IMG/VR virus record: IMGVR_UViG_3300013022_000001
Span: 1 to 46,807 of that record
From: a virus
Strand: one strand, 5' to 3'
Length of the DNA stretch: 46,807 nucleotides
Part shown: positions 3,098 through 41,255 of the stretch, in pieces
Layout: the number at the start of each line of letters is the position of its first letter
How positions within the stretch are numbered: the stretch's first letter is position 1
The notes under the pieces: generated by a model
The model's database searches: none
The model's input: only the letters and a program-made list of their open reading frames with translations
Told to the model about the DNA's origin: nothing
Made by a program: the position numbers and the translations under genes

Positions 3098-3135
3098 TTT
3101 GTTCTCCACATTTATAATTAATATCTACGACACTA

Positions 3136-3164
3136 AATCTACTGCATCACCAGCATGCTGTCAA
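3136..3164 (-). promoter_or_regulatory. Sigma70-like promoter TTGACA-17-TAGATT for the 2531-3097 gene
   Basis: The reverse complement reads ttgaca gcatgctggtgatgcag tagatt. A TGTCGTAGAT box (3123-3132) lies just downstream. Confidence 0.6.
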
Positions 3165-3168
3165 CATG

Positions 3169-3177
3169 TGATACAAT
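3169..3177 (+). promoter_or_regulatory. Extended -10 promoter TGaTACAAT
   Basis: tgatacaatc at 3169-3178. The same 10-mer recurs at 35319, 43653 and 41255-41264 (minus strand). Confidence 0.5.
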
Positions 3178-3197
3178 CTCAGCACCAATATAAAGAG

Positions 3198-3210
3198 GAT
3201 TTAATTAAAT
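3198..3210. repeat. GATTTAATTAAAT element, copy 1 (exact)
   Basis: Forms the spacer between RBS aagagg and ATG 3209. Confidence 0.9.
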
Positions 3211-3307
3211 GGCACAGTCAAAACCGGCAGCACCAAAACCAAAACAGGGCGGCTCCGCAGTCAAACCAAATGGCAGCTCACGTTCTCCTGGTCGCGGTAA
3301 GCGCTGA
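3209..3307 (+). CDS. Small basic peptide, 32 aa (MAQSKPAAPKPKQGG...GRGKR)
   Basis: Good RBS aagagga 9 nt upstream. The stop TGA is 1 nt before the next ATG. Not in the ORF track because it is under 60 aa. Confidence 0.4.
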   Translation: MAQSKPAAPKPKQGGSAVKPNGSSRSPGRGKR

Positions 3308-3308
3308 T

Positions 3309-3803
3309 ATGGCAGCCAGCCTCGACATCATTGTGGCACTGATGTATTTAGGTGCTGTCATTTACACGCGGCGACTGGCGTTTGCCATGTTCCTTCCCGC
3401 GCTGTTTATGTCCGATGTCCTGGCTGGCGCAATCATTGATTACCTGACCAATACACCATCAAGCCCGGAGTTTATTTATTTCCTGGCGCAAAGCATGATT
3501 TGGCTTATTCCGCCTTTGCTTTTGCGTAAGTCGCCACAACTGGCGCTGTGTTCACTATCAATGTGTATTTATGAATGGCTCGTTGCGGTGGAGTCTTTTA
3601 CCTGGCAGTACATCACGCCTGTTGAAACTCCACTACACTCTGAGTATGCATTCTTAGTGGTCGCCATCCATCTCTTCAACCTTTCGTGCGCGACTAAATG
3701 GGGTGGCGAAATTGGACATATTAATTGGGGTCGCAGCACTGGCCTACGGGCTCTGGCAGATTTACAAGTGCTGGCGATACATCATCAGCGAGGTGAGAAA
3801 TGA
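3309..3803 (+). CDS. Multi-pass membrane protein, 164 aa
   Basis: In-frame ATG (M158) of ORF 2838..3803. The upstream part of that ORF is the antisense shadow of 2531-3097. Several hydrophobic helices. Confidence 0.65.
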   Translation: MAASLDIIVALMYLGAVIYTRRLAFAMFLPALFMSDVLAGAIIDYLTNTPSSPEFIYFLAQSMIWLIPPLLLRKSPQLALCSLSMCIYEWLVAVESFTWQYITPVETPLHSEYAFLVVAIHLFNLSCATKWGGEIGHINWGRSTGLRALADLQVLAIHHQRGEK

Positions 3804-4084
3804 ACGAAGGATTTCGACAGGCCGCAGAGCAGGTGATCAACGGAACGGCGGGCCAGATAATCGATAAGGCTGGCTACGCTTCTATTGGGACCGGTTTAGG
3901 ACTTAAGGCAGCCGAACAGGAAAAGATTATCACACAGGTGGCAGGCTTTATGGACCTTACTATAACTGAATGGGCAGCAGTAGCATCAATCGCTGGTGCC
4001 ATTTCACTTGTGGTGAAGAACATTTTCGAAATGTGGTGGAAAGCCCGTATGGAGAAGAAATATGGCCGCCCCAACGACCGATGA
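3800..4084 (+). CDS. Hypothetical protein with one TM segment, 94 aa
   Basis: ATGA start/stop overlap with the previous gene. RBS gaggtgag. Confidence 0.65.
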   Translation: MNEGFRQAAEQVINGTAGQIIDKAGYASIGTGLGLKAAEQEKIITQVAGFMDLTITEWAAVASIAGAISLVVKNIFEMWWKARMEKKYGRPNDR

Positions 4085-4460
4085 GTTAATTGCTGCGCTG
4101 GCATCGCGTGGCGTGTCATTCAGCCTGATTGAGGCCACTGGCATTCTGTGTCTACTGGATTCAATCACTGAATGCCTGGAGCTGAATTACCCTGGTGATG
4201 AGTGCCGACAGAGTGCAATCCTACTTTATGCAGCTTTGCTTCTTTCCACATCGACCTCAGGCCGCTATGTCACAAGTCAGTCAGCACCATCGGGTGCAAG
4301 CCAGTCATTCGCTTATGGCACCAAGCCATGGTCAACTCTCTACAACCAGATGCGCCTGCTTGACCCTGCGGGATGCGCGGGTGATTTGGTTGCTGACCCT
4401 AACGAGAGCGCCAAGCCATTCTTCAAGGTGGTTACTGGCTCACGGAGGTGCTTCAATTGA
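4062..4460 (+). CDS. Putative head-tail connector/adaptor protein, 132 aa
   Basis: Position in the head-tail joining block; overlaps its neighbours. The function is assigned from position only. Confidence 0.45.
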   Translation: MAAPTTDELIAALASRGVSFSLIEATGILCLLDSITECLELNYPGDECRQSAILLYAALLLSTSTSGRYVTSQSAPSGASQSFAYGTKPWSTLYNQMRLLDPAGCAGDLVADPNESAKPFFKVVTGSRRCFN

Positions 4461-4813: not shown

Positions 4814-4815
4814 TG

Positions 4816-6480: not shown

Positions 6481-6501
6481 AAAAATGCCGCACTGGGCGG
6501 C
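6479..6501 (-). terminator. Intrinsic terminator that works only in the minus direction
   Basis: The minus strand reads gccgc ccagt gcggc then a-TTTTTTT. The plus-strand orientation has no T-run after the hairpin. Confidence 0.55.
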
Positions 6502-6808
6502 TAAAGGGTGGTGGTGCAGGGATGATTTGGTTGTGGTGGCCGGTACTGAAATCCGGCATTAGGTGCCAATCTATATTTTTAGGCTATTATGTACACGTTT
6601 AGCGGCGATCAACCCGGGCGCTTATCTCATATATATCGCATCAGCCTGCGCATTCATCACAACGGAAATAACACTGTTCACCTGATTTAACTATGCTCAT
6701 CATTAAATCAGCAATGCTATTGCCTGTTGTATCCTCGTCTTTCCGAGGCGTCAAACCGAATAGCCATGATGGTTAATCACCCTCACAGTCGGTCACTTAA
6801 CTGCGGCT
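6484..6808 (-). ncRNA. Candidate ~320-nt structured non-coding or leader transcript
   Basis: Bounded by promoter 6815-6843 (minus) and terminator 6479-6501 (minus). It contains a 9-bp stem hairpin (ctgatttaa/ttaaatcag, ~6682-6711). Other hairpins are cctcg/cgagg (~6733-6748) and gccgg/ccggc (~6539-6557). Only micro-ORFs of 33 aa or fewer are present, none with a good RBS. Confidence 0.35.
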
Positions 6809-6814
6809 GAAATC

Positions 6815-6843
6815 AATATACTGCGTTTATCTACTTCCGTCAA
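6815..6843 (-). promoter_or_regulatory. Near-consensus promoter TTGACG-17-TATATT that points into a non-coding region
   Basis: The reverse complement reads ttgacg gaagtagataaacgcag tatatt. A GTAGAT box sits in the spacer. Confidence 0.6.
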
Positions 6844-6858: not shown

Positions 6859-6867
6859 TGATATAAT
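6859..6867 (+). promoter_or_regulatory. Extended -10 promoter TGaTATAAT for the major tail operon
   Basis: ctgTGaTATAATctc lies 43 nt before ATG 6910. Confidence 0.6.
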
Positions 6868-7765: not shown

Positions 7766-8411
7766 ACTTATTTGCCTCATAAACCGCCCTGGCAAATCCG
7801 CGAGGAGTAAGTGAGCGAAGCTGCTTTGTTTTGGTAGATGCTCCACCTAATGATTTCCACCCCCAGAAACAACCGATGTGCTCAACTGGTTTTTTCTCTG
7901 GCATCACGAATCCATTTCCCGCCCAGATGCATGTTTTCTTAGTGTACCCATCACGCGCAGGCATTTTGTGGTGAATCACTGGCTCAAAACCAGACATATA
8001 GCCGCCGTACTCAAACGGGTTAAAGTAATGCTGCGGCTTTTCCCACTCTGTCGATAACTTGCCAACAGGGTTTTCAACCATCCAAGGGCATGAATATTTA
8101 TCTCCAAGCCTTTTTGCTTCTTTTGCAAGAACAATAGCATGCTGAATATCACTAATTTCACGATCATGTTGCTCTCCCGACCCTGCAAGAAAAGTGCAGT
8201 CCGGGAAAGAGAAGATTATGTCTGGCTTAAGCGCGAAATCAAAATACTCTGTAATCCACGTATTCACATAATGGATATTGTCATGCTTCATCTTGACAAC
8301 ATACTCACCATGGTTAGCATCATCGGCGTTGAAACAGTAAACCTGATGACCCGCCATAGCCCACGGCAATCCCATAATTCCTGAACCATCGAACATGCTC
8401 CAGATAATCAC
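7764..8411 (-). CDS. Compact C5-cytosine-methyltransferase-like protein, 215 aa
   Basis: Motif I-like FDGSG, motif IV-like FPDC, motif VI-like ENPVG. The GTG start overlaps the upstream stop (GTGA). It is much shorter than typical Dcm enzymes. Confidence 0.5.
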   Translation of the reverse strand: MIIWSMFDGSGIMGLPWAMAGHQVYCFNADDANHGEYVVKMKHDNIHYVNTWITEYFDFALKPDIIFSFPDCTFLAGSGEQHDREISDIQHAIVLAKEAKRLGDKYSCPWMVENPVGKLSTEWEKPQHYFNPFEYGGYMSGFEPVIHHKMPARDGYTKKTCIWAGNGFVMPEKKPVEHIGCFWGWKSLGGASTKTKQLRSLTPRGFARAVYEANK

Positions 8412-8539
8412 AGAGATTCCCCGCTCATCATCTCAACCAGCGCCCTTGCCTTTTCTTGAGCCTCTTCTTTGCTGAATCCCTGGTCTACATAGAGTGCGCT
8501 GTAGTACTCAAAGTCAGCCTGCATTTCTCTGTCGTCCAT
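8408..8539 (-). CDS. Acidic small protein, 43 aa (MDDREMQADFEYYSALYVDQGFSKEEAQEKARALVEMMSGESL)
   Basis: RBS gagga 6 nt upstream. Translationally coupled on both sides. Not in the ORF track. Confidence 0.5.
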   Translation of the reverse strand: MDDREMQADFEYYSALYVDQGFSKEEAQEKARALVEMMSGESL

Positions 8540-8736: not shown

Positions 8737-8767
8737 CTTCCAATCCTCTAAGTTATCTACTGCATTA

Positions 8768-8796
8768 AATCTACGTCACCATTAAACTGGAGTCAA
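8768..8796 (-). promoter_or_regulatory. Promoter TTGACT-17-TAGATT for the Imm / 43-aa / MTase operon
   Basis: The reverse complement reads ttgact ccagtttaatggtgacg tagatt. It contains the TGACGTAGAT box (8769-8778). Confidence 0.6.
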
Positions 8797-8799
8797 GCA

Positions 8800-8808
8800 T
8801 GTTATAAT
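8800..8808 (+). promoter_or_regulatory. Extended -10 promoter TGtTATAAT for the tail operon
   Basis: caTGtTATAATctcc lies 27 nt before ATG 8835. Confidence 0.55.
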
Positions 8809-13249: not shown

Positions 13250-13634
13250 AGAAGAATTCATTGAGATAACCATTGGAAAGCCCTGGTCCAACAGGTCCTG
13301 TAATTTCGAGCGCGTAGATTGCTGGGGTTTAGTGTGTCTTTATTTTTTGCATGTAAAGGGCATCAACATACATCACACTGATAAATATGATGCTGATGAG
13401 GATTTCTTTACGTGCTTCACCGAAGAGGTTTCGTTCTGGAGTCTTTGCGATACACCTCACTCAGCGGACATATTCGTTGGTTATGTTGGCAACATGCCTG
13501 CGCATGTAGGGCTTGTTATAAATGGCATGGCATATCACTCCCGAGCTGAATCAAGTCACGTCAGATTTGATAAGATAAGAACCATCGAAAGGCTCTTCAC
13601 TAAAGTGGAATATTATAATTATGCCGTTAATTGA
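13242..13634 (+). CDS. NlpC/P60-type tail assembly protein (lambda K-like)
   Basis: Cys-His signature VDCWGLVCLYF ... PAHVGLV. Gene order. Confidence 0.6.
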   Translation: MLKEEFIEITIGKPWSNRSCNFERVDCWGLVCLYFLHVKGINIHHTDKYDADEDFFTCFTEEVSFWSLCDTPHSADIFVGYVGNMPAHVGLVINGMAYHSRAESSHVRFDKIRTIERLFTKVEYYNYAVN

Positions 13635-16113: not shown

Positions 16114-16164
16114 GCGCTCGACATGATATACTGCACATTAAATTAAACACCAGAGAGAGCAGAA

Positions 16165-18290: not shown

Positions 18291-18318
18291 TTGACTAAAA
18301 CTAAAGCGTCACTATAAG
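18291..18318 (+). promoter_or_regulatory. Promoter TTGACT-16-TATAAG
   Basis: ttgact aaaactaaagcgtcac tataag. An ATCTAC box (18325-18330) lies at the predicted start region. Confidence 0.5.
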
Positions 18319-18345
18319 ATGCATATCTACTTCACGGAGGTTCAC

Positions 18346-18585
18346 ATGACAGATTTAGTTGCTATGCGTCAAAAATACTGGTCACAACAGAAAACGCTCT
18401 GGCCTACAAAGCGCAGTAAGGTTGCTGTGCCGTTCTGCTGGGAAGGGTTTAAGATAAACCGATGCTGCCTTGAAATGGCAAATGAAATGGCGCGCCAGGG
18501 AAAATTCAACGGGGCAAACTACCTGCTGACTGCTGCGTATGCTGTCGGGGCCAGAAATGATGATTTCTGGAATCAATTCATCTGA
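18346..18585 (+). CDS. Hypothetical protein, 79 aa
   Basis: Inner ATG of ORF 18319..18585, preceded by cacggagg. Confidence 0.6.
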   Translation: MTDLVAMRQKYWSQQKTLWPTKRSKVAVPFCWEGFKINRCCLEMANEMARQGKFNGANYLLTAAYAVGARNDDFWNQFI

Positions 18586-18600
18586 CATTTAAAATAAATG

Positions 18601-18629
18601 TTGACCTCCTGTGTCGTAGATAATAATCT
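18601..18629 (+). promoter_or_regulatory. Promoter TTGACC-17-TAATCT with an embedded inverted repeat GTAGAT-aata-ATCTAC
   Basis: ttgacc tcctgtgtcgtagataa taatct. TGTCGTAGAT box at 18612-18621; inverted repeat at 18616-18631. Confidence 0.6.
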
Positions 18630-18653
18630 ACTCCAACACAAACAGGAGGCAGC

Positions 18654-19448
18654 ATGACCACTCTTTCTCAGAAGTACGCCAACAAAGATACCCGCGATGG
18701 TATCGCAGTAAACAAATCCTATCTTGCACCTTTTCATCAGTTCTTCCTTGAGCCCGGCTACAACATCCGTGAGGCCGATGAGCAGCATGTGGAGTATTTC
18801 GCACAATGCTGGGCTGAGGGAGCTCCACTCCCACCACTGACCGTTATCGTTAAAGATAATGGCCTGCTCATCGTTGATGGTCAGCATCGCTACTTGGGCG
18901 CTCAGAGAGCGATTGAGCGAGGTCATGATATTGCACGCATCGAATGCAAAGACTTTACCGGCTCCGAGGCTGACCGAGTGGCATTTATGGTCAGCAGCAG
19001 CCAGGGTAAAGCTCTGGATGCATTTGAGCGCGCTAATGCATATCGCCGTCTTAAGGCTTTTGGATGGACTAACGAAGAAATCGCAAAGAAAGTAGGCCGC
19101 TCAGTTTCTGATGTTCAGATGCACCTTTCACTCCAGGATGTGCCGCAGGAAATCAAAGAACGCATTAAGCTTGGTCAGATGAGCTATGCATCAGGTGTCG
19201 CTGTGACACGCGAGCATGGTGATAAAGCTGTTGAGGTTGTCGAAGAGGCGCATAAGGAAGCCAGGGCGGCTGGAAAGGATAAAATCACAGCCAAACAACT
19301 CAATAAGAAGCCAAAAAAAGAAGCGGACGTTCCGCGCATCATGGAACTGCTGAAGGGCGCAACTCAGGCCGCGTTTGGCAAAAACGATTATCTATGCCTG
19401 CAACCTGGTGTTATTGATGAACTGATGGAGCTAATCAATGGACGTTGA
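18654..19448 (+). CDS. ParB-like protein (ParB/Srx N-terminal domain plus HTH)
   Basis: Motifs LLIVDGQHRYLGAQRA and GWTNEEIAKKVGRSVSDVQMHLSL. Confidence 0.75.
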   Translation: MTTLSQKYANKDTRDGIAVNKSYLAPFHQFFLEPGYNIREADEQHVEYFAQCWAEGAPLPPLTVIVKDNGLLIVDGQHRYLGAQRAIERGHDIARIECKDFTGSEADRVAFMVSSSQGKALDAFERANAYRRLKAFGWTNEEIAKKVGRSVSDVQMHLSLQDVPQEIKERIKLGQMSYASGVAVTREHGDKAVEVVEEAHKEARAAGKDKITAKQLNKKPKKEADVPRIMELLKGATQAAFGKNDYLCLQPGVIDELMELINGR

Positions 19449-19689: not shown

Positions 19690-19702
19690 GATTTAATTAA
19701 AA
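19690..19702. repeat. GATTTAATTAAAa element, copy 2 (12/13)
   Basis: Its TTAATTAA core overlaps the ssb stop codon. Confidence 0.8.
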
Positions 19703-20119
19703 AGGTATTGAATCATCGAATCCATTATTTTGCTGTACCTGTTGCTCCTTCTGTGCCTGCTGGCCGCGTTGCTGCTGGTTTGGTTGCTGACCGGCCTGTG
19801 AATGAGCGAATACAAGGCGCGGCTGCACTAATTCCAGAGTGATGTAATTTGTGCCATTATGCTCGCGCTGATTAACCTGCAATGTATCGCATGTGAAGCT
19901 GGCACATCCATCCTTAACAAGCACCTGGTCGTAATACTGAATGGCAGCAGGGGAGCTGCCAAAGACAGTGGCCCTATAGTTAGTGTACTGCCGCTGGCCA
20001 TCTTTATCTTTCCAGCTCTCTGACAGTTCCACAGCGTACATCTTCCACTCACCCTTAGCAGAACTGCCGGTCTTTGTGTAAACGTCTTTGCGAATCTGGC
20101 CGGTAATTGTATGTGGCAT
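19697..20119 (-). CDS. ssb: Single-stranded DNA-binding protein
   Basis: OB-fold-sized N-terminus, Gln-rich linker and canonical acidic tip DDSIPF. Confidence 0.9.
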   Translation of the reverse strand: MPHTITGQIRKDVYTKTGSSAKGEWKMYAVELSESWKDKDGQRQYTNYRATVFGSSPAAIQYYDQVLVKDGCASFTCDTLQVNQREHNGTNYITLELVQPRLVFAHSQAGQQPNQQQRGQQAQKEQQVQQNNGFDDSIPF

Positions 20120-20132
20120 AATTTTCTCTCTA

Positions 20133-20792
20133 TTAAAATTCGTTAATCTGCTGCGGCTCTACTTTTTGCTTATCTTCTGTGCGATCAGAAGCAAGTGATT
20201 CCGGCTTTGTTATCTTCGCAGGGTTGAATGATTCGCCAGAGGTTGAAAGTTTTGCTTTCATTTCCTGATATGCGCCAGTTACAACACGAATTGCCGCATC
20301 ATCACCCTGATAGGTTTTGTATTCTTCTGCGTAAACCTTTTTCAGCTCATCAAAGCTTTCACACAGGCGAATGGCTGCTGCTGCATCTTTTGGCGACTTG
20401 CGGGCAGCATTGCCATCATCATCTGCCTGCGCGATACCAAACATAGCTGCGATAGAGTAACGGCGCGCATAAGTCATCGCAGAGCCATATCCCTGTGCAT
20501 CTTTCTTGGCAACTGGCATTGGCATGACTGAAGACATATATTCTCCTGACTCATGCATGATAGTAGTTTCCAGCTTTAGTGTGTCGTTAGAATCACTGTC
20601 AACTGCGTTCTGGATGATTATAAGGCCATTCGACTCAAGTGCTGGCCTGATTGCATTCAGGAATGATTCCAGATTTGCATAGTTACTTTTAAGGTGTGGG
20701 TTGCTGGCGTTTTTCTTTGCCGCGCTGCTCATCACCTTTCTTGCTTCAACCAGAGATTTAATTAAATTTGCTTTCTGTTCTGAGAAAATCAT
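20133..20792 (-). CDS. erf: Erf-family single-strand annealing protein, 219 aa
   Basis: Inner ATG (MIFSEQ). Erf-like core NPHLKSNYANLESFLNAIRPALESNGL. Confidence 0.8.
   Translation of the reverse strand: MIFSEQKANLIKSLVEARKVMSSAAKKNASNPHLKSNYANLESFLNAIRPALESNGLIIIQNAVDSDSNDTLKLETTIMHESGEYMSSVMPMPVAKKDAQGYGSAMTYARRYSIAAMFGIAQADDDGNAARKSPKDAAAAIRLCESFDELKKVYAEEYKTYQGDDAAIRVVTGAYQEMKAKLSTSGESFNPAKITKPESLASDRTEDKQKVEPQQINEF
20755..20767. repeat. GATTTAATTAAAT element, copy 3 (exact), inside erf
   Basis: Read as N-L-I-K-S on the minus strand. It shares the 17-mer AGATTTAATTAAATTTG with copy 5. Confidence 0.9.
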
Positions 20793-20799
20793 AATTGCC

Positions 20800-21735: not shown

Positions 21736-21761
21736 GTCACCACCTTTTGTCGTAGATAAGT

Positions 21762-21790
21762 AATCTACTCCATTAACCCGAAGTAGTAAA
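21762..21790 (-). promoter_or_regulatory. Internal promoter TTTACT-17-TAGATT for exo-erf-ssb
   Basis: The reverse complement reads tttact acttcgggttaatggag tagatt. It overlaps the VRR-NUC stop codon. A TGTCGTAGAT box at 21748-21757 lies on the opposite strand. Confidence 0.45.
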
Positions 21791-22181
21791 GCGTTGCTTT
21801 CTTCAGTTCATCAATGCCATATGCAATCCCTGCAAACCCACCAGACTTGACGACATGTTCGCCAAATTTCCATTGGTTAGCGCTTACCTTACACTTTGTT
21901 TTATCTCGCCTTTTAAGTTCTATTGTTCCATATGGCCAGGCAATACCGCGATGTAAAATGATGTTGTCATGAACGCCGCTTTTTACGCCCATCTTCTGAC
22001 GCTTAATAATCAACTGCACGCCGGATTTAGTGCTGGTTTCGTTTGGAACATGGAAGAAATTAACTTCCGGGAATCGGTACTCCATCCATAGCCCGTATGC
22101 CATCTGGTCAATTTCTTCTTTAGGACATGGCCCGCGATAACCACTATCAAAAACATAAATTCCGCTATCAAGCTGCTTCAA
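21765..22181 (-). CDS. VRR-NUC domain nuclease
   Basis: PD-(D/E)xK pattern GVHDNIIL ... GTIELKRRDKTKCKVSANQ. Confidence 0.65.
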   Translation of the reverse strand: MKQLDSGIYVFDSGYRGPCPKEEIDQMAYGLWMEYRFPEVNFFHVPNETSTKSGVQLIIKRQKMGVKSGVHDNIILHRGIAWPYGTIELKRRDKTKCKVSANQWKFGEHVVKSGGFAGIAYGIDELKKATLYYFGLME

Positions 22182-24081: not shown

Positions 24082-24099
24082 ATCATTAGTCCTTTGTTG

Positions 24100-24141
24100 T
24101 TGTCGTAGATTGATGGTAATCTTAACTTATATCTACGTCAA
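24100..24141. promoter_or_regulatory. Overlapping face-to-face promoters framed by 11-bp inverted repeats TTGtCGTAGAT / ATCTACGTCAA
   Basis: Plus strand: TTGTCG-17-TAACTT, towards primase. Minus strand: TTGACG-17-TACCAT, towards helicase. Confidence 0.5.
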
Positions 24142-24156
24142 TACTGGATTTAAAAT

Positions 24157-25110
24157 ATGAACCGATACGACTGGAACGACATACAACCAAGGATGGTGGG
24201 TAACTGGCAGGGAGCACTGCTTTCGCTGGTTGACATCGACAGCAAAGCATTTAACGGCAAGCATCAGCCATGCCCGCACTGCAATGGCAAGGACCGTTAC
24301 CGCTTCACGGATGAGTGCGGTGAAAAAGGTGATGGTGGCGCGGTGTGCAATCAGTGTGGTGGTGGCGATGGCATGAGATGGCTTATGAAGCTGTCAGGCA
24401 GGTCATTCGGTGAGTGCGTGACAATGATTGCTCAATATCTCAATCTTACGCCACCAGAGCGCCTGGAAGTTATCAAAAAGGAAATGCCCAAGATTGGCTG
24501 TATAGATGCAATGACTCCTGCTCAGGTGCACTCAATGATGTCTAAAGCGCACGCTGTTGACTGTTGCTCATGGCAGAGAGTGGAAGGTATTGGCGGGCAC
24601 TTTAACATCGCCAATGGCAAAAGTGGCGATCTTGTGGCTGTTGAATGCCTTATACCTTCATCCCTTCCACAAAAGGGAGAGGGCTTTTCAGGTAATGCCT
24701 GTAACGTAGGATTCATCGACATTAATAATAAATGTCGATTCGCGTCTGGTATAACTGACATCATGATCAACGGGCGCATAACGCCGGGAATGGTTTCACC
24801 GGTAGGCGATGCCGCTGGCGCGTCAGTTTATCTCGTCGCGGATTACGCCGATGCCTGGCATGCGCACTATCTGACCGGCGCGCAAATATGGTGCTGCTGG
24901 TCAGTTGAGAATATGTGGGAAGTGGCGCGGCTCTTCCCGTCCCACGAAGGAAGAATTAAGGCTATAGTAAATCGCAATGAATATGAATTGTTTGGCGCTG
25001 ATAACGCAGACTTGCAGGTACTGGTGCCGCAGGATTCACAAACGATAAAAGGCGCGAAAGCGATTGAGCGAATATTGTGGAAAGCCGATGACTTACTGGC
25101 TGTGATGTAA
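24157..25110 (+). CDS. DNA primase (zinc-ribbon type)
   Basis: Primase Zn-ribbon signature HQPCPHCNGKDRYRF...GGAVCNQCGGGDGMRWLM. Confidence 0.75.
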   Translation: MNRYDWNDIQPRMVGNWQGALLSLVDIDSKAFNGKHQPCPHCNGKDRYRFTDECGEKGDGGAVCNQCGGGDGMRWLMKLSGRSFGECVTMIAQYLNLTPPERLEVIKKEMPKIGCIDAMTPAQVHSMMSKAHAVDCCSWQRVEGIGGHFNIANGKSGDLVAVECLIPSSLPQKGEGFSGNACNVGFIDINNKCRFASGITDIMINGRITPGMVSPVGDAAGASVYLVADYADAWHAHYLTGAQIWCCWSVENMWEVARLFPSHEGRIKAIVNRNEYELFGADNADLQVLVPQDSQTIKGAKAIERILWKADDLLAVM

Positions 25111-25115
25111 AATAA

Positions 25116-25135
25116 AACCCGCCATTTGGCGGGTT
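25116..25135. terminator. Bidirectional terminator
   Basis: Stem aacccgcc / ggcgggtt with loop attt, flanked by A- and T-rich runs. Confidence 0.7.
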
Positions 25136-25140
25136 ATTCT

Positions 25141-25644
25141 CTATAAATTTTGGAAACCATCATAGATTTCCTTTAGATGGCCACGCAATTCCATTCTCCT
25201 TAATGCTGAAAGCATATAGTCGCACTCGACCTGCTTATTACCCTTAAATGCTTTGCATTCGTCACTTGCCCACAAAATATTTCCTGTCGGCCAGCCCTGA
25301 ACCTTTCGCACCTTACCATTAACAACATGCAGCAATCCCCAGCCAGCAGGTAAATCTTCAACGTTAATTATGCCCGGCTCGCTAATGAAGAATCGCCAGT
25401 CTCCCATGCCAATATCAGGGTTTAGCCTGAATCGTTTTTTTCGGTCAGTCAGTAAATCTGAACGGGAGCATTTTGCTTCAATAAGGCAGGATGCATTATT
25501 TCTAAATCCCATTGCGTCTGGCTGCTCACCTGTGAAAGTCACAGCCTTAAAGCGATCATGAAAACAAACTTTAAAACCATTTTTCTTAAGAAAATTATAG
25601 GCAATATGGCATAAATCGTTATGTGATAATTTTACATTTTCCAT
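25141..25644 (-). CDS. PD-(D/E)xK nuclease, MmcB-like
   Basis: Motif PDAMGF ... CLIEAKCSRSDLLTDRKK. Confidence 0.55.
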   Translation of the reverse strand: MENVKLSHNDLCHIAYNFLKKNGFKVCFHDRFKAVTFTGEQPDAMGFRNNASCLIEAKCSRSDLLTDRKKRFRLNPDIGMGDWRFFISEPGIINVEDLPAGWGLLHVVNGKVRKVQGWPTGNILWASDECKAFKGNKQVECDYMLSALRRMELRGHLKEIYDGFQNL

Positions 25645-27200
25645 TATTTCAACCTCGGACTAATATAAACCTTACCTTTACTCACAACGCAATACCCTGC
25701 AACTTCCATGCCTGGCAAAACCACATCCTTTAGCCTTGCGTAAAGCTGGGGTATTCCACTAAATGGCTTGACCTTTTTGATTGAATCATAAATCCACTTA
25801 ACTGTAACCACATCTCTCTTCTGCTGAATCTGCTTGCGTAGCCGCTCAGAAATCAGTTCAGTCTCTGACTTCTCACCAGCATATCCGCGTGACTCAACAG
25901 CATCAGTGAACGTCTTGGTCAGCGCCTCATAAACAGCGATGGCGCGACTCATGCTATCGTCATTTATTGTAAATGACCTCTTGCCACCATCATTCCAGTT
26001 ATCGGCAACGTGAAATATCGCAGCCAGGCGCGTGATGTGTTTGTCAGCCTTCCCCATCGCGCCGCGCAGCAATGCATGCTCCCATTTCCCGCCGTCTCGA
26101 AAGTTTTCCTCCCACCGGTCACGGTGCATAGCCAGCATCTTTTGTGCCATTTTGCTGAGCTTGAGTTTAACCTGCCCAGCTTCGATAATGGCATGAACAA
26201 ATCTTGCATACTCCGCCTTCAGTTCTGCGGACACTGGCTCATATGCTGGCCTGTCATTGTCATAGTCCCAGTGCTTGCGCTGTCCAATCATTGGAGGCTC
26301 ACGCAGCATAAGGAATCGCTCAGTCAGACCATTTCCGCGCTCACCGGCAGAAAGAATTGATTCAATGCTCTCATCCTGAGCGATTACCGAGATGTTTCCC
26401 AGGATGTTGCCAGATGAAATGCCGCGACCGATACGGGCTGTACCAACAAACCCACCATCCCAGCCCTTCAGCACGATTTCGGCGTTGGATTTTGAACCGT
26501 CTGCACCATAAGACAACCCCAGTGCCGTGTTGAGTGCTGTGGCCTCATCGGAAATGATGCTGAAAAAACCACCTTCCGCATTCGCAATAAGCTGGATTGC
26601 CTCCGGCGTTCCATCGGTAACCGGGTAGGTTATCGGGTAAATTTTCTCAAGCTTTTCATTCTCCCTCGCCATGTCATCTGACAATGCCTGTTTCTCATTC
26701 TGGTTAGTTGCCTCTTTGTATGTTTTCTTCAGCTCTTCAAGTCGGAAGTTAATCTTGGCGATCTGCTTAATGGCCTTTTCGCTTATCCGGTCAAATTCAG
26801 CCTTGATTGGCATGACGTGCATTGAGTTAACCGCAGATTTACCCGATGATGGAGGCTGAGACGTAACAACGTACATAGAAATTGGCAGCTCCGTTCCATG
26901 GTACTCAACCGTGAAATTGCGCGCCATAGCGCTTGAAACACATCCAATCAGGTGCATGAATGATGTGTTTGGCGGGAACTGAACCGACCTTGCAACTGAC
27001 AATGCGTATCGACTTAAAAGGTCTTTTCTGCTTTCGCTGGTCAGTGAAATTGTCGAATATGTCTCTCCGCCATCGGATGGATTCTCCTGAATCTCAGGCC
27101 ACATATTGTAGTTTGGCGAGATTTCATAGCTGATTGCAACTGCCGCCGCAGTCCTTCCTGTCGAGGCTGCTTCTGTGAAAATTTCCTGCGCTGATTTCAT
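25644..27200 (-). CDS. DUF3987-like P-loop protein (putative replicative helicase/loader)
   Basis: Walker-A-like PPSSGKSA. Its size and its position next to the origin-like region support the call. The family assignment is from memory. Confidence 0.5.
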   Translation of the reverse strand: MKSAQEIFTEAASTGRTAAAVAISYEISPNYNMWPEIQENPSDGGETYSTISLTSESRKDLLSRYALSVARSVQFPPNTSFMHLIGCVSSAMARNFTVEYHGTELPISMYVVTSQPPSSGKSAVNSMHVMPIKAEFDRISEKAIKQIAKINFRLEELKKTYKEATNQNEKQALSDDMARENEKLEKIYPITYPVTDGTPEAIQLIANAEGGFFSIISDEATALNTALGLSYGADGSKSNAEIVLKGWDGGFVGTARIGRGISSGNILGNISVIAQDESIESILSAGERGNGLTERFLMLREPPMIGQRKHWDYDNDRPAYEPVSAELKAEYARFVHAIIEAGQVKLKLSKMAQKMLAMHRDRWEENFRDGGKWEHALLRGAMGKADKHITRLAAIFHVADNWNDGGKRSFTINDDSMSRAIAVYEALTKTFTDAVESRGYAGEKSETELISERLRKQIQQKRDVVTVKWIYDSIKKVKPFSGIPQLYARLKDVVLPGMEVAGYCVVSKGKVYISPRLK

Positions 27201-27460
27201 TTTTCACCCTTGTAAATGACGAGAACACCGGATTCCATTTTTTTTGTTCTGACCATGACTTTAAGTGAGTAGCAGGTGCCTCTTATCCTTGCTGAAATCT
27301 GCCTTGCCGTAAGGCCTTCGCGTAATGGGTAAATGAATGATTCTCCAGGAATCATGACGGAAAACTGGTTGCGCAATTCATTCGTCATGCCGCATGTGCT
27401 CTTTGTTTTCCGCTCAGAAACGAGATTTCTCGTCTGCGCCACGCTTAACTTTTCAAACAT
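27197..27460 (-). CDS. Hypothetical basic protein, 87 aa, first gene next to the origin-like region
   Basis: Inner ATG of ORF 27197..27565, preceded by aaggagg. ATGA overlap with the next gene. Confidence 0.6.
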   Translation of the reverse strand: MFEKLSVAQTRNLVSERKTKSTCGMTNELRNQFSVMIPGESFIYPLREGLTARQISARIRGTCYSLKVMVRTKKMESGVLVIYKGEK

Positions 27461-27519
27461 GTATTCCTCCTTATCTTTACCCATACTAACCCATCCTTTA
27501 TCTCTCTGAAAACAGTTTT

Positions 27520-27830
27520 TTCGCATTGGGGTGCGGGGTGAGGCAGGGGTTTTGGCTAACCCCACGTTATGTATATGATTTTAATATTAAAAATGATATT
27601 GGGGTAAATGGGGTGGGTTTCTTAATAATATTATCATTTTTCTTTCGTAAAAATTTGGCACCCGTAATTTTGTTTTTCTTTTTTATATTAATAGTAAAAT
27701 TACAATATAACCCCCCCCATTACCCCATATATATACTATGTTATTGTAATTATTATACTTATTAGCAAAAAAATTGGGGTGGATAGACTATACCCAGCAC
27801 CCACCCCACACACCCAAAGTTACCCCGCCC
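27520..27830. other. Putative origin of replication: inverted GGGGT/ACCCC iterons flanking an AT-rich core
   Basis: GGGGT at 27528, 27535, 27546, 27601, 27610 and 27776. ACCCC at 27559, 27722, 27803 and 27822. C8 run at 27711-27718. AT-rich core at about 27615-27775. No credible ORF. Confidence 0.5.
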
Positions 27831-27873
27831 ACCATCCGGCCGTCATCGGCTAATTTATTTTTAATCACGCCTA

Positions 27874-27902
27874 TTGACGTAGATATCCATGAGTAGTAGA
27901 TT
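27874..27902 (+). promoter_or_regulatory. Promoter TTGACG-17-TAGATT for the early rightward operon
   Basis: ttgacg tagatatccatgagtag tagatt. TGACGTAGAT box at 27875-27884. Confidence 0.65.
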
Positions 27903-27940
27903 TAACTCATCGAAAGCAGGCAACCTGATGAGGTATCAAA

Positions 27941-31008: not shown

Positions 31009-31017
31009 TGGTAAACT
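31009..31017 (+). promoter_or_regulatory. Extended -10 promoter TGgTAAACT for terS-terL
   Basis: It lies immediately after the terminator. It overlaps an AAACTACGTCAA box (31012-31023), which also occurs at 33693-33704. Confidence 0.4.
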
Positions 31018-31059
31018 ACGTCAATACAGATAAATTACTGACTTTGATAGGTTTAATCT

Positions 31060-33624: not shown

Positions 33625-33653
33625 AATCTAATCCATGCAAATATCTACGTCAA
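33625..33653 (-). promoter_or_regulatory. Promoter TTGACG-17-TAGATT, with TAGATT tandemly duplicated
   Basis: The reverse complement reads ttgacg tagatatttgcatggat tagatt tagatt. TGACGTAGAT box at 33643-33652. Confidence 0.6.
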
Positions 33654-33670
33654 TATCTTGAAGTAGATTA

Positions 33671-33699
33671 TTGCTATCTACTCCAACCTGTCATAAACT
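33671..33699 (+). promoter_or_regulatory. Promoter TTGCTA-17-TAAACT
   Basis: ttgcta tctactccaacctgtca taaact, followed by RBS aggagg and ATG 33722. Confidence 0.4.
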
Positions 33700-33721
33700 A
33701 CGTCAAACCACAGGAGGATTT

Positions 33722-33934
33722 ATGAAGCCAGTAGCCTATTCGAAAATCAGCGAAGATGAAAAAATGCAGATGTTCTCAATGTCGCGCATGGGCCTGGCTG
33801 ATGAAGTCATAATGTCCAAGTTCAATGTGGATGAAGATACTCTCCTGCGCTGCCTTGAGGACACGTTCGTCAATGTCCAGGTTGCGCGGGGGTACAATAA
33901 AATCGATAAGAAAGGCGGAAGCTTGAGGGTGTGA
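33722..33934 (+). CDS. Hypothetical protein, 70 aa
   Basis: Inner ATG with RBS caggagg. Confidence 0.6.
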   Translation: MKPVAYSKISEDEKMQMFSMSRMGLADEVIMSKFNVDEDTLLRCLEDTFVNVQVARGYNKIDKKGGSLRV

Positions 33935-35318: not shown

Positions 35319-35327
35319 TGATACAAT
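35319..35327 (+). promoter_or_regulatory. Extended -10 promoter TGaTACAAT for the portal operon
   Basis: caTGaTACAATccc. It overlaps the left arm of the hairpin at 35326-35349. Confidence 0.5.
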
Positions 35328-38643: not shown

Positions 38644-38682
38644 CTTCATCTCCCGCAGCACCATTGCCGCTCTATGTGTAGT

Positions 38683-38711
38683 AGATTAGCTACCGCTGCA
38701 GTAGATGTCAA
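38683..38711 (-). promoter_or_regulatory. Promoter TTGACA-17-TAATCT for the 38643-37763 operon
   Basis: The reverse complement reads ttgaca tctactgcagcggtagc taatct. Confidence 0.6.
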
Positions 38712-38728
38712 CAGGGTGAAGTAGAATA

Positions 38729-38737
38729 TGGTAGAAT
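38729..38737 (+). promoter_or_regulatory. Extended -10 promoter TGgTAGAAT for the lysis cassette
   Basis: taTGgTAGAATtat lies 28 nt before ATG 38765. Confidence 0.5.
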
Positions 38738-38764
38738 TATTTTAAATTGAGCGAGGAGTGAGCG

Positions 38765-39456: not shown

Positions 39457-39799
39457 GTTAATTATTGCTGGCGTTATTCTTGCACTGCTGACCGGTTCTC
39501 ACTTATGGGCCTATCGCGCCGGATGGTCCGCGCATGCCGATAAGGTAAATAAGGAATACGCAGAACGCAAGGCTCGTGCAGATGCAGCGCAGGAAAAGAG
39601 CAACGCTAAAGCTGAAGAGGTTCGGGTTGTCACCGAAACCAAATACCGTACCGTCTACCGTGATGTGGTGAAATATGTACAAGACCAGAATCGTACTGTG
39701 TGCAAGTTTGACGATGCTGCTGTGCAGCTGCGCCAGCAAGCCATCGACGCTGCCAACGCCGTCAGCCTTCATGAAAAAGGAGCCGTGCAAGCTCGTTAA
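39440..39799 (+). CDS. i-spanin (Rz-like)
   Basis: N-terminal TM segment IKLIIAGVILALLTG followed by a charged coiled coil. Confidence 0.7.
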   Translation: MTAQIKLIIAGVILALLTGSHLWAYRAGWSAHADKVNKEYAERKARADAAQEKSNAKAEEVRVVTETKYRTVYRDVVKYVQDQNRTVCKFDDAAVQLRQQAIDAANAVSLHEKGAVQAR

Positions 39800-39914
39800 T
39801 GCTGGCTCTGATAGCGATGCTGACTTGCAGGCTGATGTTGATAACGCAAATTGTGCTGCGTCATTAAGATTGCAGGTTTATCTATGGCAGGATTACGGGA
39901 ATAACGCGCAATAA
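39675..39914 (+). CDS. o-spanin (Rz1-like lipoprotein), overlapping the i-spanin out of frame
   Basis: Lipobox-like LLCSC followed by Pro-rich PSTLPTPS. It starts inside the i-spanin gene and extends past it. Confidence 0.65.
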   Translation: MYKTRIVLCASLTMLLCSCASKPSTLPTPSAFMKKEPCKLVNAGSDSDADLQADVDNANCAASLRLQVYLWQDYGNNAQ

Positions 39915-39915
39915 A

Positions 39916-39938
39916 AAGCCCCGCGAGGGGCTTTATTT
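39916..39938. terminator. Bidirectional terminator
   Basis: aagcccc gcga ggggctt followed by a T-rich tract, with an A-run upstream. Confidence 0.75.
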
Positions 39939-40010
39939 CAGTTTTCTTCTGCTTGCTTATCCCACTCTTCGCGAAAATCTACCGGGCGATCAAAGCCTTG
40001 AGTTGATATG

Positions 40011-40292
40011 CTATTTATCATCACTTGTTGATGATTCCACAATCCGCACCAGTTCCGCATTAACCTTTCCATCGGCATAGTCGCCCAGCTTGTAGTAATT
40101 GCTGGCATTGCTGAGAAGGACAGGTTTTGCGCCTGATTGAGAAAGGTTGGTGACCAGATAGCTGATGGTTTCCGTACCGACTTTCAGCACCGCATCGCCG
40201 GTCATTGAGATGGATTGTAGTTGCGCAGAGTTGTCGGTGATATTGCTGTAATCGCTGGTCAGTTGTGCTTTGGTGATATCTACGAATGGCAT
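40011..40292 (-). CDS. Hypothetical protein, 93 aa
   Basis: ORF track; last gene of antisense island 6. Confidence 0.6.
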   Translation of the reverse strand: MPFVDITKAQLTSDYSNITDNSAQLQSISMTGDAVLKVGTETISYLVTNLSQSGAKPVLLSNASNYYKLGDYADGKVNAELVRIVESSTSDDK

Positions 40293-40294
40293 AA

Positions 40295-40654
40295 TTAATC
40301 TTCCTCAATTTTTGAATATGCAGCAAGCAATGTGAGTGATGAGATTAGCATGAAAGTGCCAAGCACGAAGTGGCCTAGTGCATAAACGGCCGCTAGCTCA
40401 GCAATTACTGTCAGCACATGGTATTTGCGATGAATCCAGATCCTCGACTTAATTGGATTTCCGTCTTTTTTTATCCTGAACTTGTCGCTGCTAATGATGG
40501 CGCAGGCCGCCATAAATGTGAGTGCTGAGTTAACCCAGAAGAAAGCCAGCGCCAGGTTGTAGACATAATCCATCTGGAGATAAAGGCCGAAATAAATCAG
40601 CGGCCATACAATAACTACGTCCTGCACCACGTTACGGATAAATCTCCACATCAT
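40295..40654 (-). CDS. Multi-pass membrane protein, 119 aa
   Basis: 3-4 hydrophobic helices; ATGA overlap with the upstream gene. Confidence 0.65.
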   Translation of the reverse strand: MMWRFIRNVVQDVVIVWPLIYFGLYLQMDYVYNLALAFFWVNSALTFMAACAIISSDKFRIKKDGNPIKSRIWIHRKYHVLTVIAELAAVYALGHFVLGTFMLISSLTLLAAYSKIEED

Positions 40655-40986
40655 TTTCTCTCCAGTTCAATTGCGCGCTTGGCGCTTTCTAGGATTTCAT
40701 TCAAGTCCTGCTCGCGGTCTTTGTGTCCACGGAGTCCAGCACACAACGCCTTTTTAATTAAATGTTGCAGTGCGGGGTTCGTGACTTCAAAAGCCTGCAA
40801 AACATCGTAGACGTCGATTGTGACACCTTTGCATGGGCGGTTGTATTTGCCTGAGCGTAAATTAATCACAGAATCACTGGATATAATATCTGACTTTGAC
40901 TCATAGCGATTCACGACACCACAAACATCGCATTTAAATACTACGGGTCCTGGCTCAGGTCCGTAAACTGGCGTGTCACATGCCAT
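40651..40986 (-). CDS. Zn-ribbon / DUF3310-like protein, 111 aa
   Basis: FKCDVCG near the N-terminus. IDVYDVLQAFEV...LIKKALCAGLRGHKDREQDL resembles DUF3310, from memory. Confidence 0.55.
   Translation of the reverse strand: MACDTPVYGPEPGPVVFKCDVCGVVNRYESKSDIISSDSVINLRSGKYNRPCKGVTIDVYDVLQAFEVTNPALQHLIKKALCAGLRGHKDREQDLNEILESAKRAIELERK
40751..40763. repeat. ttTTTAATTAAAT element, copy 6 (11/13), inside 40651-40986
   Basis: Read as H-L-I-K-K on the minus strand. Confidence 0.75.
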
Positions 40987-41186
40987 CACTCACCTCTCAA
41001 AGTAACTTTATTCTCACCATCCACATCAAAATTCTGGCGGATGAAGTCATACATCTCTTCTCGCGTCCATTCCTTCATTCCAACGTAGCAGGCCGCATAC
41101 TGGCGCACGCCACGCAGCGTAATAGGTTGGCGTTCCGTCACAATTTTTGTCAGCGCATCAATCGGCTCACTTCTTTTCTTTCCCAT
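40986..41186 (-). CDS. Hypothetical protein, 66 aa
   Basis: RBS gagaggga; ORF track. Confidence 0.6.
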   Translation of the reverse strand: MGKKRSEPIDALTKIVTERQPITLRGVRQYAACYVGMKEWTREEMYDFIRQNFDVDGENKVTLRGE

Positions 41187-41255
41187 TCTTCCCTCTCAAA
41201 ATTAACTTGCGCTTATGGTGACGTAGATATAGTATCAAGTCAAGCGATGGAGTAG

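Follow-up and report, generated by a model that had tools for sequence, protein, structure and literature searches.

In plasmid RK2, KorA and KorB govern global repressor regulons whose operators overlap promoters; the operators of KorB are dispersed, and through them it represses many promoters. The boxes bound by P1 ParB are asymmetric and vary in orientation. The middle promoters of phage T4 combine a MotA box at −30 with a sigma-70 −10 element and are used together with AsiA, and the −35-independent extended −10 promoters of the same phage are insensitive to AsiA. Forkhead- and Rok-type winged-helix domains read asymmetric sites of 7 to 10 bp without fixed spacing. The window analyzed here, a stretch of 46,807 nucleotides of viral DNA, is the near-complete genome of a distant Skatevirus/Roufvirus-like siphophage, and it carries a recurrent box with the core GTAGAT, on which we found no literature.

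The box is asymmetric and 10 to 11 bp long. TG[AT]CGTAGAT is its best-conserved form, and it reads TGNNGTAGAT[AT] in this genome and TGAYGTAGATT group-wide. All nine exact copies of TGWCGTAGAT listed in the preliminary description were found again at the same positions and on the same strands (Table 1), and they are rarer by chance than had been estimated (expectation of 0.07, not about 0.2; none of 100 dinucleotide-preserving shuffles gave nine). This 10-mer is a subset of the wider box TGNNGTAGAT, which has 20 copies in the window versus 1.1 expected. The hexamer GTAGAT occurs 32 times versus 13.8 expected and is the top intergenic-enriched hexamer of the genome: intergenic DNA makes up 8.4% of the sequence but holds 21 of the 32 copies (binomial P = 4e-16). 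The statement that no copy lies inside a long open reading frame (ORF) holds for the gene map, in which all nine are intergenic, but the copies at 3123, 18612, and 41219 do fall within mechanical ORFs of 60 aa or more (2838-3803 plus, 18573-18926 minus, and 40980-41255 plus, respectively); these ORFs are judged spurious because they overlap better genes or have a start farther upstream than the probable true one. Each of the eight divergent intergenic regions has two or more boxes; of the five convergent regions, four have none and the fifth has one GTAGAT (39977) without the TG flank. The GTAGAT/ATCTAC inverted repeats (18616-18631, 21752-21768, and 33663-33681), the relaxed copies (31012, 33693, and 6829), and the copies of ATCTACTCCA / TGGAGTAGAT (18626, 21763, 33676, and 41248) were likewise reproduced. 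Spacing within box pairs is irregular, from 10 to 33 bp, with no sign of a fixed cooperative geometry.

Table 1. Boxes, promoters, and candidate reader genes in the window
Feature	Position	Strand	Comment
Box TGTCGTAGAT, direct	3123..3132	-	About +1 to +8, downstream of the −10 of the leftward g04 promoter
Promoter TTGACA-17-TAGATT	3136..3164	-	−10 within box TGCAGTAGAT (3137-3146)
Extended −10 promoter TGATACAAT, no −35	3169..3177	+	Back-to-back with box promoter; serves head-tail genes
Promoter TTGACG-17-TATATT	6815..6843	-	Relaxed box GGAAGTAGAT (6829-6838) in spacer
Box TGCAGTAGAT, direct	8755..8764	-	Downstream of −10, 14 bp from 8769 box
Promoter TTGACT-17-TAGATT for g18-g16	8768..8796	-	−10 within box TGACGTAGAT (8769-8778)
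Promoter TTGACT-18-TAAGAT for g26, with inverted box	18291..18334	+	TGAAGTAGAT (18325-18334, minus strand) across predicted start site
ParB-like gene promoter, TTGACC	18601..18635	+	Box TGTCGTAGAT (18612-18621) in spacer
Inverted box TGGAGTAGAT	18626-18635	-	Over −10 (TAATCT or AATAAT) of ParB-like gene promoter
g27, ParB-like with ParB/KorB-type HTH	18654..19448	+	Candidate reader, weakened by P400
Internal promoter TTTACT-17-TAGATT, exonuclease/recombinase operon	21748..21790	-	−10 in box TGGAGTAGAT (21763-21772, minus)
Box TGTCGTAGAT	21748-21757	+	Inverted, across start site of exonuclease/recombinase promoter
Helicase promoter TTGACG-17-TACCAT	24101..24141	-	Box TGACGTAGAT (24131-24140, minus) fused with −35
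Box TGTCGTAGAT	24101-24110	+	Inverted, across helicase start site
Promoter TTGACG-17-TAGATT for g38-g45	27874..27902	+	Box TGACGTAGAT (27875-27884) fused with −35
g49/g50 divergent region; leftward promoter TTGACG-17-TAGATT	33625..33685	-	Box TGACGTAGAT (33643-33652, minus)
Boxes TGAAGTAGAT and TGGAGTAGAT	33659-33668; 33676-33685	plus; minus	Inverted repeat upstream of g50
g50, 70 aa, group-specific	33722..33934	+	Predicted three-helix HTH-like bundle; candidate reader
Leftward promoter TTGACA-17-TAATCT for g61	38677..38711	-	Both hexamers adjoin inverted boxes
g61-promoter boxes TGTAGTAGAT and TGCAGTAGAT	38677-38686; 38697-38706		Plus-strand reading
g68, 66 aa, group-specific	40986..41186	-	Predicted small winged helix; candidate reader
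g68/g69 divergent region	41219..41264	+	Boxes TGACGTAGAT (41219-41228) and TGGAGTAGAT (41248-41257)
Other extended −10 promoters	6859, 8800, 16124, 31009, 35319, 43653	+	
Other extended −10 promoter	41256	-	

In Skatevirus/Roufvirus-like siphophages, the box is built into −35-dependent sigma-70-type promoters of non-structural (early or middle) operons. Its 5′ half overlaps the −35 hexamer (TTGACGTAGAT; TTGAC-G), its 3′ half is a usable −10 hexamer (gTAGATT), and further copies span the predicted start site in either orientation, as at five promoters of the window (3123, 8755, 18325, 21748, and 24101); similar registers hold boxes in both orientations. The preliminary description had confined the box to operon starts, had tied it to TTGACN-17-TAGATT promoters of mainly non-structural operons, and had noted that its position differs among promoters. 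We find the same, with boxes that cover the −35 or the −10, lie between the two hexamers, or extend across the start site. Most of the individual pairs it named (3136, 8768, 27874, and 33625) were found by the promoter tool, but the pair at 21790..21762 has TTTACT (4/6) as its upstream hexamer rather than TTGAC. From the letters, TAATCT plausibly serves as a reverse-reading −10 at 18601-18629 and 38711-38683, and AATAAT (18622-18627) is an alternative −10 hexamer at the former. The total of generic sigma-70 consensus matches in the window is not above that in shuffles, and it is thus position and conservation, rather than the scan itself, that support the promoter calls.

The box geometry at 8755/8769 is the same as that at 3123/3137, and region 24101..24141 also faces the primase gene. 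The promoter at 6815..6843 (minus) reads into about 320 nt without an ORF or tRNA. A second GTAGAT (27896-27901) gives the −10 of the g38-g45 promoter, and 27874..27902 as a whole is a conserved island amid diverged intergenic DNA. At 38677-38711 the boxes are conserved and the spacers variable in four relatives; the 29 sequence variants compared for the ParB-operon promoter likewise keep both boxes and differ in their spacers, and the GTAGAT-N4-ATCTAC repeat of this promoter is retained in the relatives L084, L085, L087, and L088. The box at 41248-41257 overlaps the leftward extended −10 TGATACAAT (41264..41256, minus), which drives g68. As a counterpoint, the conserved downstream boxes could instead be 5′-untranslated-region RNA elements.

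The preliminary description had proposed checking related phages for conservation of the box between genes. Such conservation was found, and the box is shared across the Skatevirus/Roufvirus-like group, a point missed there. TGAYGTAGATT tops intergenic enrichment in Klebsiella phage DP01, Salmonella phage VSt472, Vibrio phage pYD38-A, and the relatives L002 and L079, and of 77 IMG/VR relatives most also have the motif at a high rank. The lambdoid phage EhrS_59 lacks it, as do true T1-like phages; the latter have other motifs, and many of them share enterobacterial host genera with the box-bearing group. The box is thus lineage-specific, not host-specific. Group-wide, about 60% of the boxes lie in one orientation at exactly two registers from TTGAC (offsets 5 and 22/23). 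Among 219 distinct intergenic contexts, 74 fit a −10 with a −35 spaced by 16 to 18 bp, 55 fit a −35, and 90 (41%) fit neither, 63 to 68% of these keeping TG at −4/−3. The −35-class boxes read TTGACGTAGATTGA and the −10-class boxes read GTGRTGTAGATTnAA; these are near-identical 11-mers, and, with the bases read by sigma-70 being established, their conserved positions include ones that it is not known to read.

We put at about one-half the probability that the box would be both promoter and operator, the operator serving a global regulator encoded by the phage. In favor of this are the lineage specificity of the box, the conserved bases beyond those that sigma-70 is known to read, and the copies that are neither a −35 nor a −10. 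A sequence-specific DNA-binding protein of the phage would read the box, with TGACGTAGATA/T as its predicted target, in addition to host RNA polymerase. Since all box copies lie within the polymerase footprint, such binding would occlude the polymerase, and it may repress or shut off the box promoters as a set, including that of the regulator itself. Transcription would then shift to −35-independent extended −10 promoters (TGnTAYAAT) before the structural and packaging operons. Extended −10 promoters without a −35 do precede structural operons, a second promoter class that had previously been missed and that we found in the window, DP01, and VSt472; judged from gene content only, the two classes would be early and late.

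The candidate readers, all conserved in the group, are the winged-helix protein g68, the HTH-like protein g50, and the ParB/KorB-like protein g27. A monomeric winged-helix or HTH reader would best suit a box that is asymmetric and varies in spacing and orientation. The genes for g68 and g50 occur in 207 and 206 phage records, respectively, with the same genus distribution, and both are retained in all motif-positive genomes tested; their fold matches are weak (Foldseek E from 0.2 upwards), and the models were built on shallow alignments. Other proteins suggested earlier are less likely readers. For the Zn-ribbon/HTH protein g49, tblastn gave no match (E <= 1e-3) in DP01, VSt472, pYD38-A, or EhrS_59, which makes it a poor candidate for a group-wide motif, and the AP2-like g40 has no match in the same four genomes. 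The AP2-like HNH endonuclease g10 has homologues in the four genomes, but their positions are non-syntenic, as expected for a mobile homing endonuclease, and therefore do not suggest a regulator.

The earlier proposal of an operator for a phage regulator is reasonable but not established. The roughly 60% of group boxes at the two fixed registers are the −35 and −10 hexamers themselves, as would be expected of a promoter consensus alone. A serious rival, although the less probable reading, is therefore that the box is the lineage's own sigma-70 promoter (−35 TTGACG, −10 gTAGATT) with host RNA polymerase as the sole reader. Likeness within the genome would then reflect shared ancestry of the promoter modules or their duplication or conversion, and extra copies would be tandem or overlapping promoters or leftovers. 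The sharp preference for those registers, nearly always in direct orientation, and the 74 and 55 contexts that fit promoter roles agree with this, as do the several boxes called by the tool as 9-10/12 consensus promoters and the retention of TAGATT with its leader TCATCGAAA even in the distant Yersinia phage P400. TTGACG and TAGATT are acceptable sigma-70 hexamers, and the non-consensus G and T of TAGATT could be inherited, not selected. However, T1-like phages without the motif use the same host polymerase, spacer bases are conserved too (TAGATTGA following the −35 and GTGRTG preceding the −10), and the −35 and −10 versions are one and the same 11-mer. Furthermore, neither role fits 41% of the boxes, the last −10 position is not a T in TAGATA boxes, and inverted boxes at 18325, 21748, and 24101 span start sites.

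It is unlikely that the boxes are operators of g27 in particular, with this protein repressing a dispersed regulon globally in the manner of KorB and autoregulating its own promoter. The protein has an HTH_ParB match (E = 2e-10) and a KorB-domain match, its promoter has two boxes in every clade, and the ParB-like gene is retained despite a replication-module swap (L166, L168, and L169 on the contigs of L085, L088, and L087). Neither a ParB-like gene (best tblastn E = 1.5) nor the TGAYGTAGAT extension is present in P400, a joint absence observed in this single genome. However, GGTAGAT is the top intergenic 7-mer of P400 (8/12 copies; P = 2e-7), including non-promoter inverted copies, and this retention of GTAGAT boxes weakens the case for the ParB-like protein, which the preliminary description had named as a possible reader. 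EhrS_59 has a ParB-like gene (42% identity) but no motif, the box is asymmetric, unlike palindromic KorB or parS sites, and direct reading of the g27 sequence gives GQHRY at box II rather than GERRxRA. Very unlikely, in our view, is a role of the direct boxes past the −10 (3123 and 8755) as −10-like elements for sigma-70-dependent promoter-proximal pausing, as at lambdoid late promoters, instead of as protein operators. A second TAGATA does lie exactly 8 nt past the TAGATT −10 (about +3 to +8) at both promoters with an identical 14-bp spacing, but TAGATA lacks the T at its last position, the arrangement fits only 2 of about 21 boxes, inverted boxes take the same place at other promoters, and no Q-like antiterminator was noticed. 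Binding by a host transcription factor, with the phage borrowing a host regulon signal, is scarcely credible: nothing direct favors it, the hosts of the related phages being all Gammaproteobacteria, whereas the motif follows the phage lineage, since T1-like and lambdoid phages that infect the same hosts do not have it, and we know of no enterobacterial factor site that it resembles.

The combined promoter and operator that we favor shares features with several known systems. The predicted g68 model (three helices and a beta-hairpin) resembles forkhead domains and Bacillus Rok (TM of 0.6 to 0.7), but the matches are weak (E from 0.2 upwards) and come with no sequence similarity, and DNA binding is putative. 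As in E. coli-type sigma-70 promoters, TTGACN, a 17-bp spacer, and TAGATT (A at position 2, T at position 6) lie upstream of operons in the correct orientation, but here the class shares one non-consensus −10 and the same extra flanking bases, which are conserved across phages with helicases about 70% identical. As in T4 middle promoters, a lineage-specific element has a fixed register and orientation beside the −35 position, and a second, −35-independent extended −10 class coexists; unlike in T4, a good −35 (TTGACG) is kept rather than replaced, and the same box is also found at the −10 and downstream. No MotA or AsiA homologues were identified among the few proteins scanned. In contrast to the 12- to 13-bp RK2 KorA/KorB palindrome, the box is asymmetric, variable in orientation and spacing, and unrelated in sequence; it doubles as −35 and −10, and a relative without ParB (P400) retains its core. 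Nevertheless, as in RK2, some ten scattered promoters on a small replicon share one short site, which lies over or next to the −35 or −10, and the same genome encodes a ParB-family HTH protein with sites at its own promoter.

The box, a short asymmetric motif with the core GTAGAT and a strongest form of TG[AT]CGTAGAT (examples are TGACGTAGATA and TGGAGTAGATT), is a real, conserved regulatory motif embedded in promoters. The nine exact TG[AT]CGTAGAT copies reported in the preliminary description were all found at the same positions and on the same strands, as were the inverted repeats, the copies of TGGAGTAGAT, and the relaxed copies; shuffled sequences contained a mean of 0.07 exact copies and never more than one. 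The wider form TGNNGTAGAT occurs 20 times (1.1 expected), and GTAGAT occurs 32 times (13.8 expected). An unbiased k-mer scan of intergenic versus coding DNA, a comparison that the earlier description had called for, places GTAGAT as by far the top intergenic-enriched hexamer: intergenic DNA makes up 8.4% of the genome but holds 21 of the 32 copies (P = 4e-16). The shuffles and the intergenic enrichment together rule out chance or low complexity as the source of the box. The claim that no exact copy lies in a long ORF holds for a gene map based on codon usage, in which all nine are intergenic, although three are within mechanical ORFs that overlap better genes. Two or more boxes are present in each of the eight divergent intergenic regions. 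Of the five convergent regions, four are free of boxes, and the other has a single GTAGAT that lacks the TG flank.

The window covers nearly all of a phage genome. The 70-amino-acid protein encoded by g50 is identical to one on a 46,825-bp public contig, and the nearest deposited phages have only ~72% nucleotide identity to the window, which is syntenic with Klebsiella phage DP01, Salmonella virus VSt472 (genus Skatevirus), and Vibrio phage pYD38-A (genus Roufvirus). Its plus-strand structural operons are broken up by short leftward accessory operons, which creates many compact divergent promoter regions. Two close relatives (L163 and L165) carry a DnaB, NinB, NinG, and RecT module where the window has genes for a ResIII helicase, a primase, and a DUF3987 protein (19697-27484), and they keep the box promoters despite this swap of the replication/recombination module. 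On matching IMG/VR contigs, the ParB-like gene is retained in phages that have the RecT/DnaB alternative.

Box promoters are all intergenic, oriented toward an operon, and 18 to 60 nt from a start codon on the same strand. A sigma-70 match was defined as a -35-like and a -10-like hexamer, the latter with A at position 2 and T at position 6; the genome-wide total of such matches is not above that of shuffles. The preliminary description had placed TTGAC at 21790..21762 as well, but the upstream hexamer there is TTTACT, and the sigma-70 match is weaker than at the other box promoters. Positions of the promoter elements are collected in the table.

Box promoters and extended -10 elements in the window
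Feature	Position	Strand	Remark
-35/-10 pair, 16- to 18-bp spacing	3164..3136, 8796..8768, 6843..6815, 24141..24113, 33653..33625	-	Sigma-70 match
-35/-10 pair, 16- to 18-bp spacing	27874..27902	+	Sigma-70 match
Box fused with -35 hexamer	24131, 27875, 33643		TTGACGTAGAT (TTGACGTCTCT is its form altered in the box with the hexamers spared)
Box as -10 (gTAGATT)	3137, 8769, 21763, 27896		TTGACN-like hexamer 17 bp upstream of each
Direct box across predicted start site	3123, 8755		Exactly 14 bp past the -10 box at both
Inverted box across predicted start site	18325, 21748, 24101
Extended -10	3169-3177, 6859-6867, 8800-8808, 16124-16132, 31009-31017, 35319-35327, 43653-43661	+
Extended -10	41256-41264	-

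Conservation of the box reaches past the -35 and -10 hexamers. Across the group, GTAGAT follows TTGAC in direct orientation with a sharp preference for offsets of 5 and 22/23, and the boxes of the -35 class (TTGACGTAGATTGA) and of the -10 class (GTGRTGTAGATTnAA) are nearly one 11-mer. The logo over 219 distinct intergenic contexts is TGAYGTAGATT; 90 of these contexts fit neither a -35 nor a -10 role, and the TG flank is kept in 63 to 68% of those 90. In the promoter of the ParB operon, 29 Skatevirus/Roufvirus sequence variants retain TTGACGTAGATT and a downstream TGAYGTAGAAAC, while the spacers vary. Similarly, inverted boxes abut both hexamers of the leftward promoter at 38677-38711, and four relatives preserve these boxes unchanged but vary in the intervening spacers. 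Five promoters in the window have a box over the predicted start site. Conservation outside the bases needed by polymerase, as would be expected of an operator, is thus found in the flanks, in the copies that are inverted or near the start site, and in fixed boxes separated by variable spacers.

TAGATT promoters are followed by a conserved leader, TAGATTnnnnTCATCGAAAS and then GATGAGG (window 27897-27935). The ribosome-binding site could be part of a hairpin formed by this leader. L083 (near 24426 and 44497) shares the leader, as does Yersinia phage P400 (L246; near 4708 and 23926), distant though it is. The 13-mer TAAACTACGTCAA is identical at 33693-33705, upstream of g50, and at 31011-31023, upstream of the terminase genes. 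Since a perfect TATAAT in L165 aligns to its TAAACT, the latter is probably a -10 with a degenerate inverted box after it. The minus-strand stretch 6487-6843 contains a box promoter (TTGACG-17-TATATT), and the ~320 nt that it would transcribe hold no ORF of >40 amino acids and are closed by a terminator at 6501-6487. At the syntenic location, DP01 encodes three tRNAs. A tRNA search of the window found none, an Rfam search of the entire window matched no family, and the fold of the candidate transcript from 6487-6808 is not more stable than those of shuffled sequences (z = -1.3).

The structural and packaging operons are preceded by a second promoter class, an extended -10 without a -35, with the sequence TG(T)GATAYAAT or close variants, the general form being TG(T)GnTAYAAT. 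TGATAYAAT occurs five times, compared with 1.0 expected. These elements, which also occur in L082 and L083, are 25 to 40 nt upstream of genes for head-tail, major tail, tape-measure, tail-fiber, terminase, portal, and scaffold/capsid proteins; their positions are conserved in DP01 and VSt472, in which they are 25 to 36 nt upstream of portal, scaffold, head-tail, major tail, tape-measure, and tail-spike genes. Within divergent regions, a box promoter and an extended -10 stand back to back. The gene content of the operons suggests an early or middle role for the box promoters, and the extended -10 promoters are probably the late ones.

Conservation of the box in related phages, which the preliminary description had suggested checking, is evident in DP01, VSt472, pYD38-A, L002, and L079, in which TAGATT, GTAGAT, and CGTAGA are the most intergenic-enriched hexamers. 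Among 77 IMG/VR relatives, with the ParB-like gene as anchor, most rank GTAGAT within the top few. Most promoter regions of L002 (~86% nucleotide identity) are too close to those of the window to be informative for footprinting, for which more distant relatives served instead. The box is absent from true T1-like phages, which carry other intergenic motifs and whose helicases are 44 to 48% identical to that of the window, and from the lambdoid phage EhrS_59. This indicates that the signal follows the phage lineage and not the host polymerase. Among the T1-like phages, TTAGCAA-N3-GTGCTAT recurs at scattered places in L017, immediately before ribosome-binding sites (e.g., 9845, 19009, and 21141), and L044 has ~11 GTAAGAT repeats clustered within 360 bp (8077-8436). 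The box motif was undescribed in the literature searched, where matches to the sequence string were unrelated primers.

Replication iterons, which form a tandem cluster at one locus beside replication genes, do not explain boxes dispersed over ten regions. Another repeat, TGGGGTG, does cluster, at 27525-27835. A candidate replication origin, a 456-bp intergenic region (27485-27870) adjoining the DUF3987 primase/helicase-like gene g36, has an AT-rich core between (A/T)TGGGGT(G/A) repeats in both orientations, and CACCCC/GGGGTG is also intergenic enriched in relatives. Nor does the box resemble a KorB/ParB operator or parS, which is a palindrome of 13 to 16 bp: it is asymmetric, its inverted pairs have spacers of 4, 5, 7, and 20 bp, and a ParB-family protein does not accompany it everywhere.

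The most informative genome on this last point is that of P400, which has g68-like and g50-like genes and in which a ParB-like gene was not found (best tblastn E = 1.5). Its top intergenic 7-mer is GGTAGAT (8 of 12 copies; P = 2e-7), and some of these copies are TAGATT -10 elements, while an inverted pair lies ahead of the g50-like gene; TGAYGTAGAT has no copy in this genome. ParB is thus not needed for the core box. The TGACG-extended box does co-occur with ParB in every genome tested, and ParB could still accompany the extended form, a possibility based on one genome. EhrS_59 carries a ParB-like gene (42% identity) in its replication region and lacks the motif, so that it says little about regulation. 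The g68-like frame of P400 (13579..13388, minus strand) overlaps an annotated plus-strand coding sequence within 13334-13561, probably a misannotation in the record.

Few nonstructural, nonreplication proteins are common to all motif-positive genomes: g27, g50, g68, g28, and g17, the last two being tiny proteins of unknown function. The ParB-like g27 matches HTH_ParB and KorB domains. A confident three-helix bundle (pLDDT 89) is predicted for g50, with weak fold matches to many HTH domains; g68 (66 amino acids) is predicted to be a small winged helix (pLDDT 84), with weak best matches (E from 0.2 upward) to forkhead, Rok, and Rpc5 winged helices. Genes g68 and g50 are found in 207 and 206 phage records, respectively, with identical genus distributions, and the ParB-like family is broader (317 records). 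Genes g68 and g50 both co-occur with the motif in all genomes tested, P400 included, and g27 does not. The Zn-ribbon/HTH protein g49 and the AP2-like g40, two readers suggested earlier, and the XRE-type HTH protein g11 were dropped as readers of a motif shared by the group because they have no match in DP01, VSt472, pYD38-A, or EhrS_59.

We give a probability of about 0.5 to a dedicated phage protein that reads the box. Lineage specificity, conserved bases beyond those polymerase is known to read, copies over start sites, and the occurrence of both orientations argue for it, but most copies are in strict register and in one orientation, and no fixed pair spacing, the sign of a cooperative dimer site, is preferred (10 to 33 bp, apart from the 17 to 18 bp imposed by the promoter). 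Strict register and single orientation are also explained by a promoter consensus with no dedicated reader, which we consider less likely but a serious rival. If a dedicated protein does bind, every site is within the polymerase footprint, so that repression or timed shutoff of the early set would be the simplest mechanism, with late expression carried by the extended -10 promoters. A long shot is that the box, g68, g50, and the two promoter classes constitute an undescribed temporal switch of virulent siphophages without their own polymerase, in which one small phage protein would recognize an 11-mer mimicking both the -35 and the -10 and would either hand host polymerase to the box promoters or evict it, the late genes meanwhile relying on -35-independent extended -10 promoters.

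Skatevirus/Roufvirus-like phages are common phages of Salmonella, Klebsiella, and E. coli that are often proposed for therapy and biocontrol. To our knowledge, their gene regulation is essentially undescribed. The two promoter classes yield a map of early and late transcription units that can be tested in >200 sequenced phages, a shortlist of three candidate regulators (g27, g50, and g68), and defined DNA parts with which these phages could be engineered. Promoter and operator motifs specific to phages are already familiar, and the finding poses no challenge to current ideas. In logic, the box arrangement is like the global-repressor regulons of RK2 plasmid KorA/KorB and the phage-specific middle promoters of T4. 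However, the defining features of KorB/parS sites are missing: the box is no palindrome, and P400 does without ParB. The boxes also differ from iterons in that they are not clustered. The T4 MotA box replaces a missing -35, whereas here the -35 (TTGACG) is intact, and a temporal switch of the kind outlined would resemble the AsiA/MotA scheme in logic but would use unrelated proteins.
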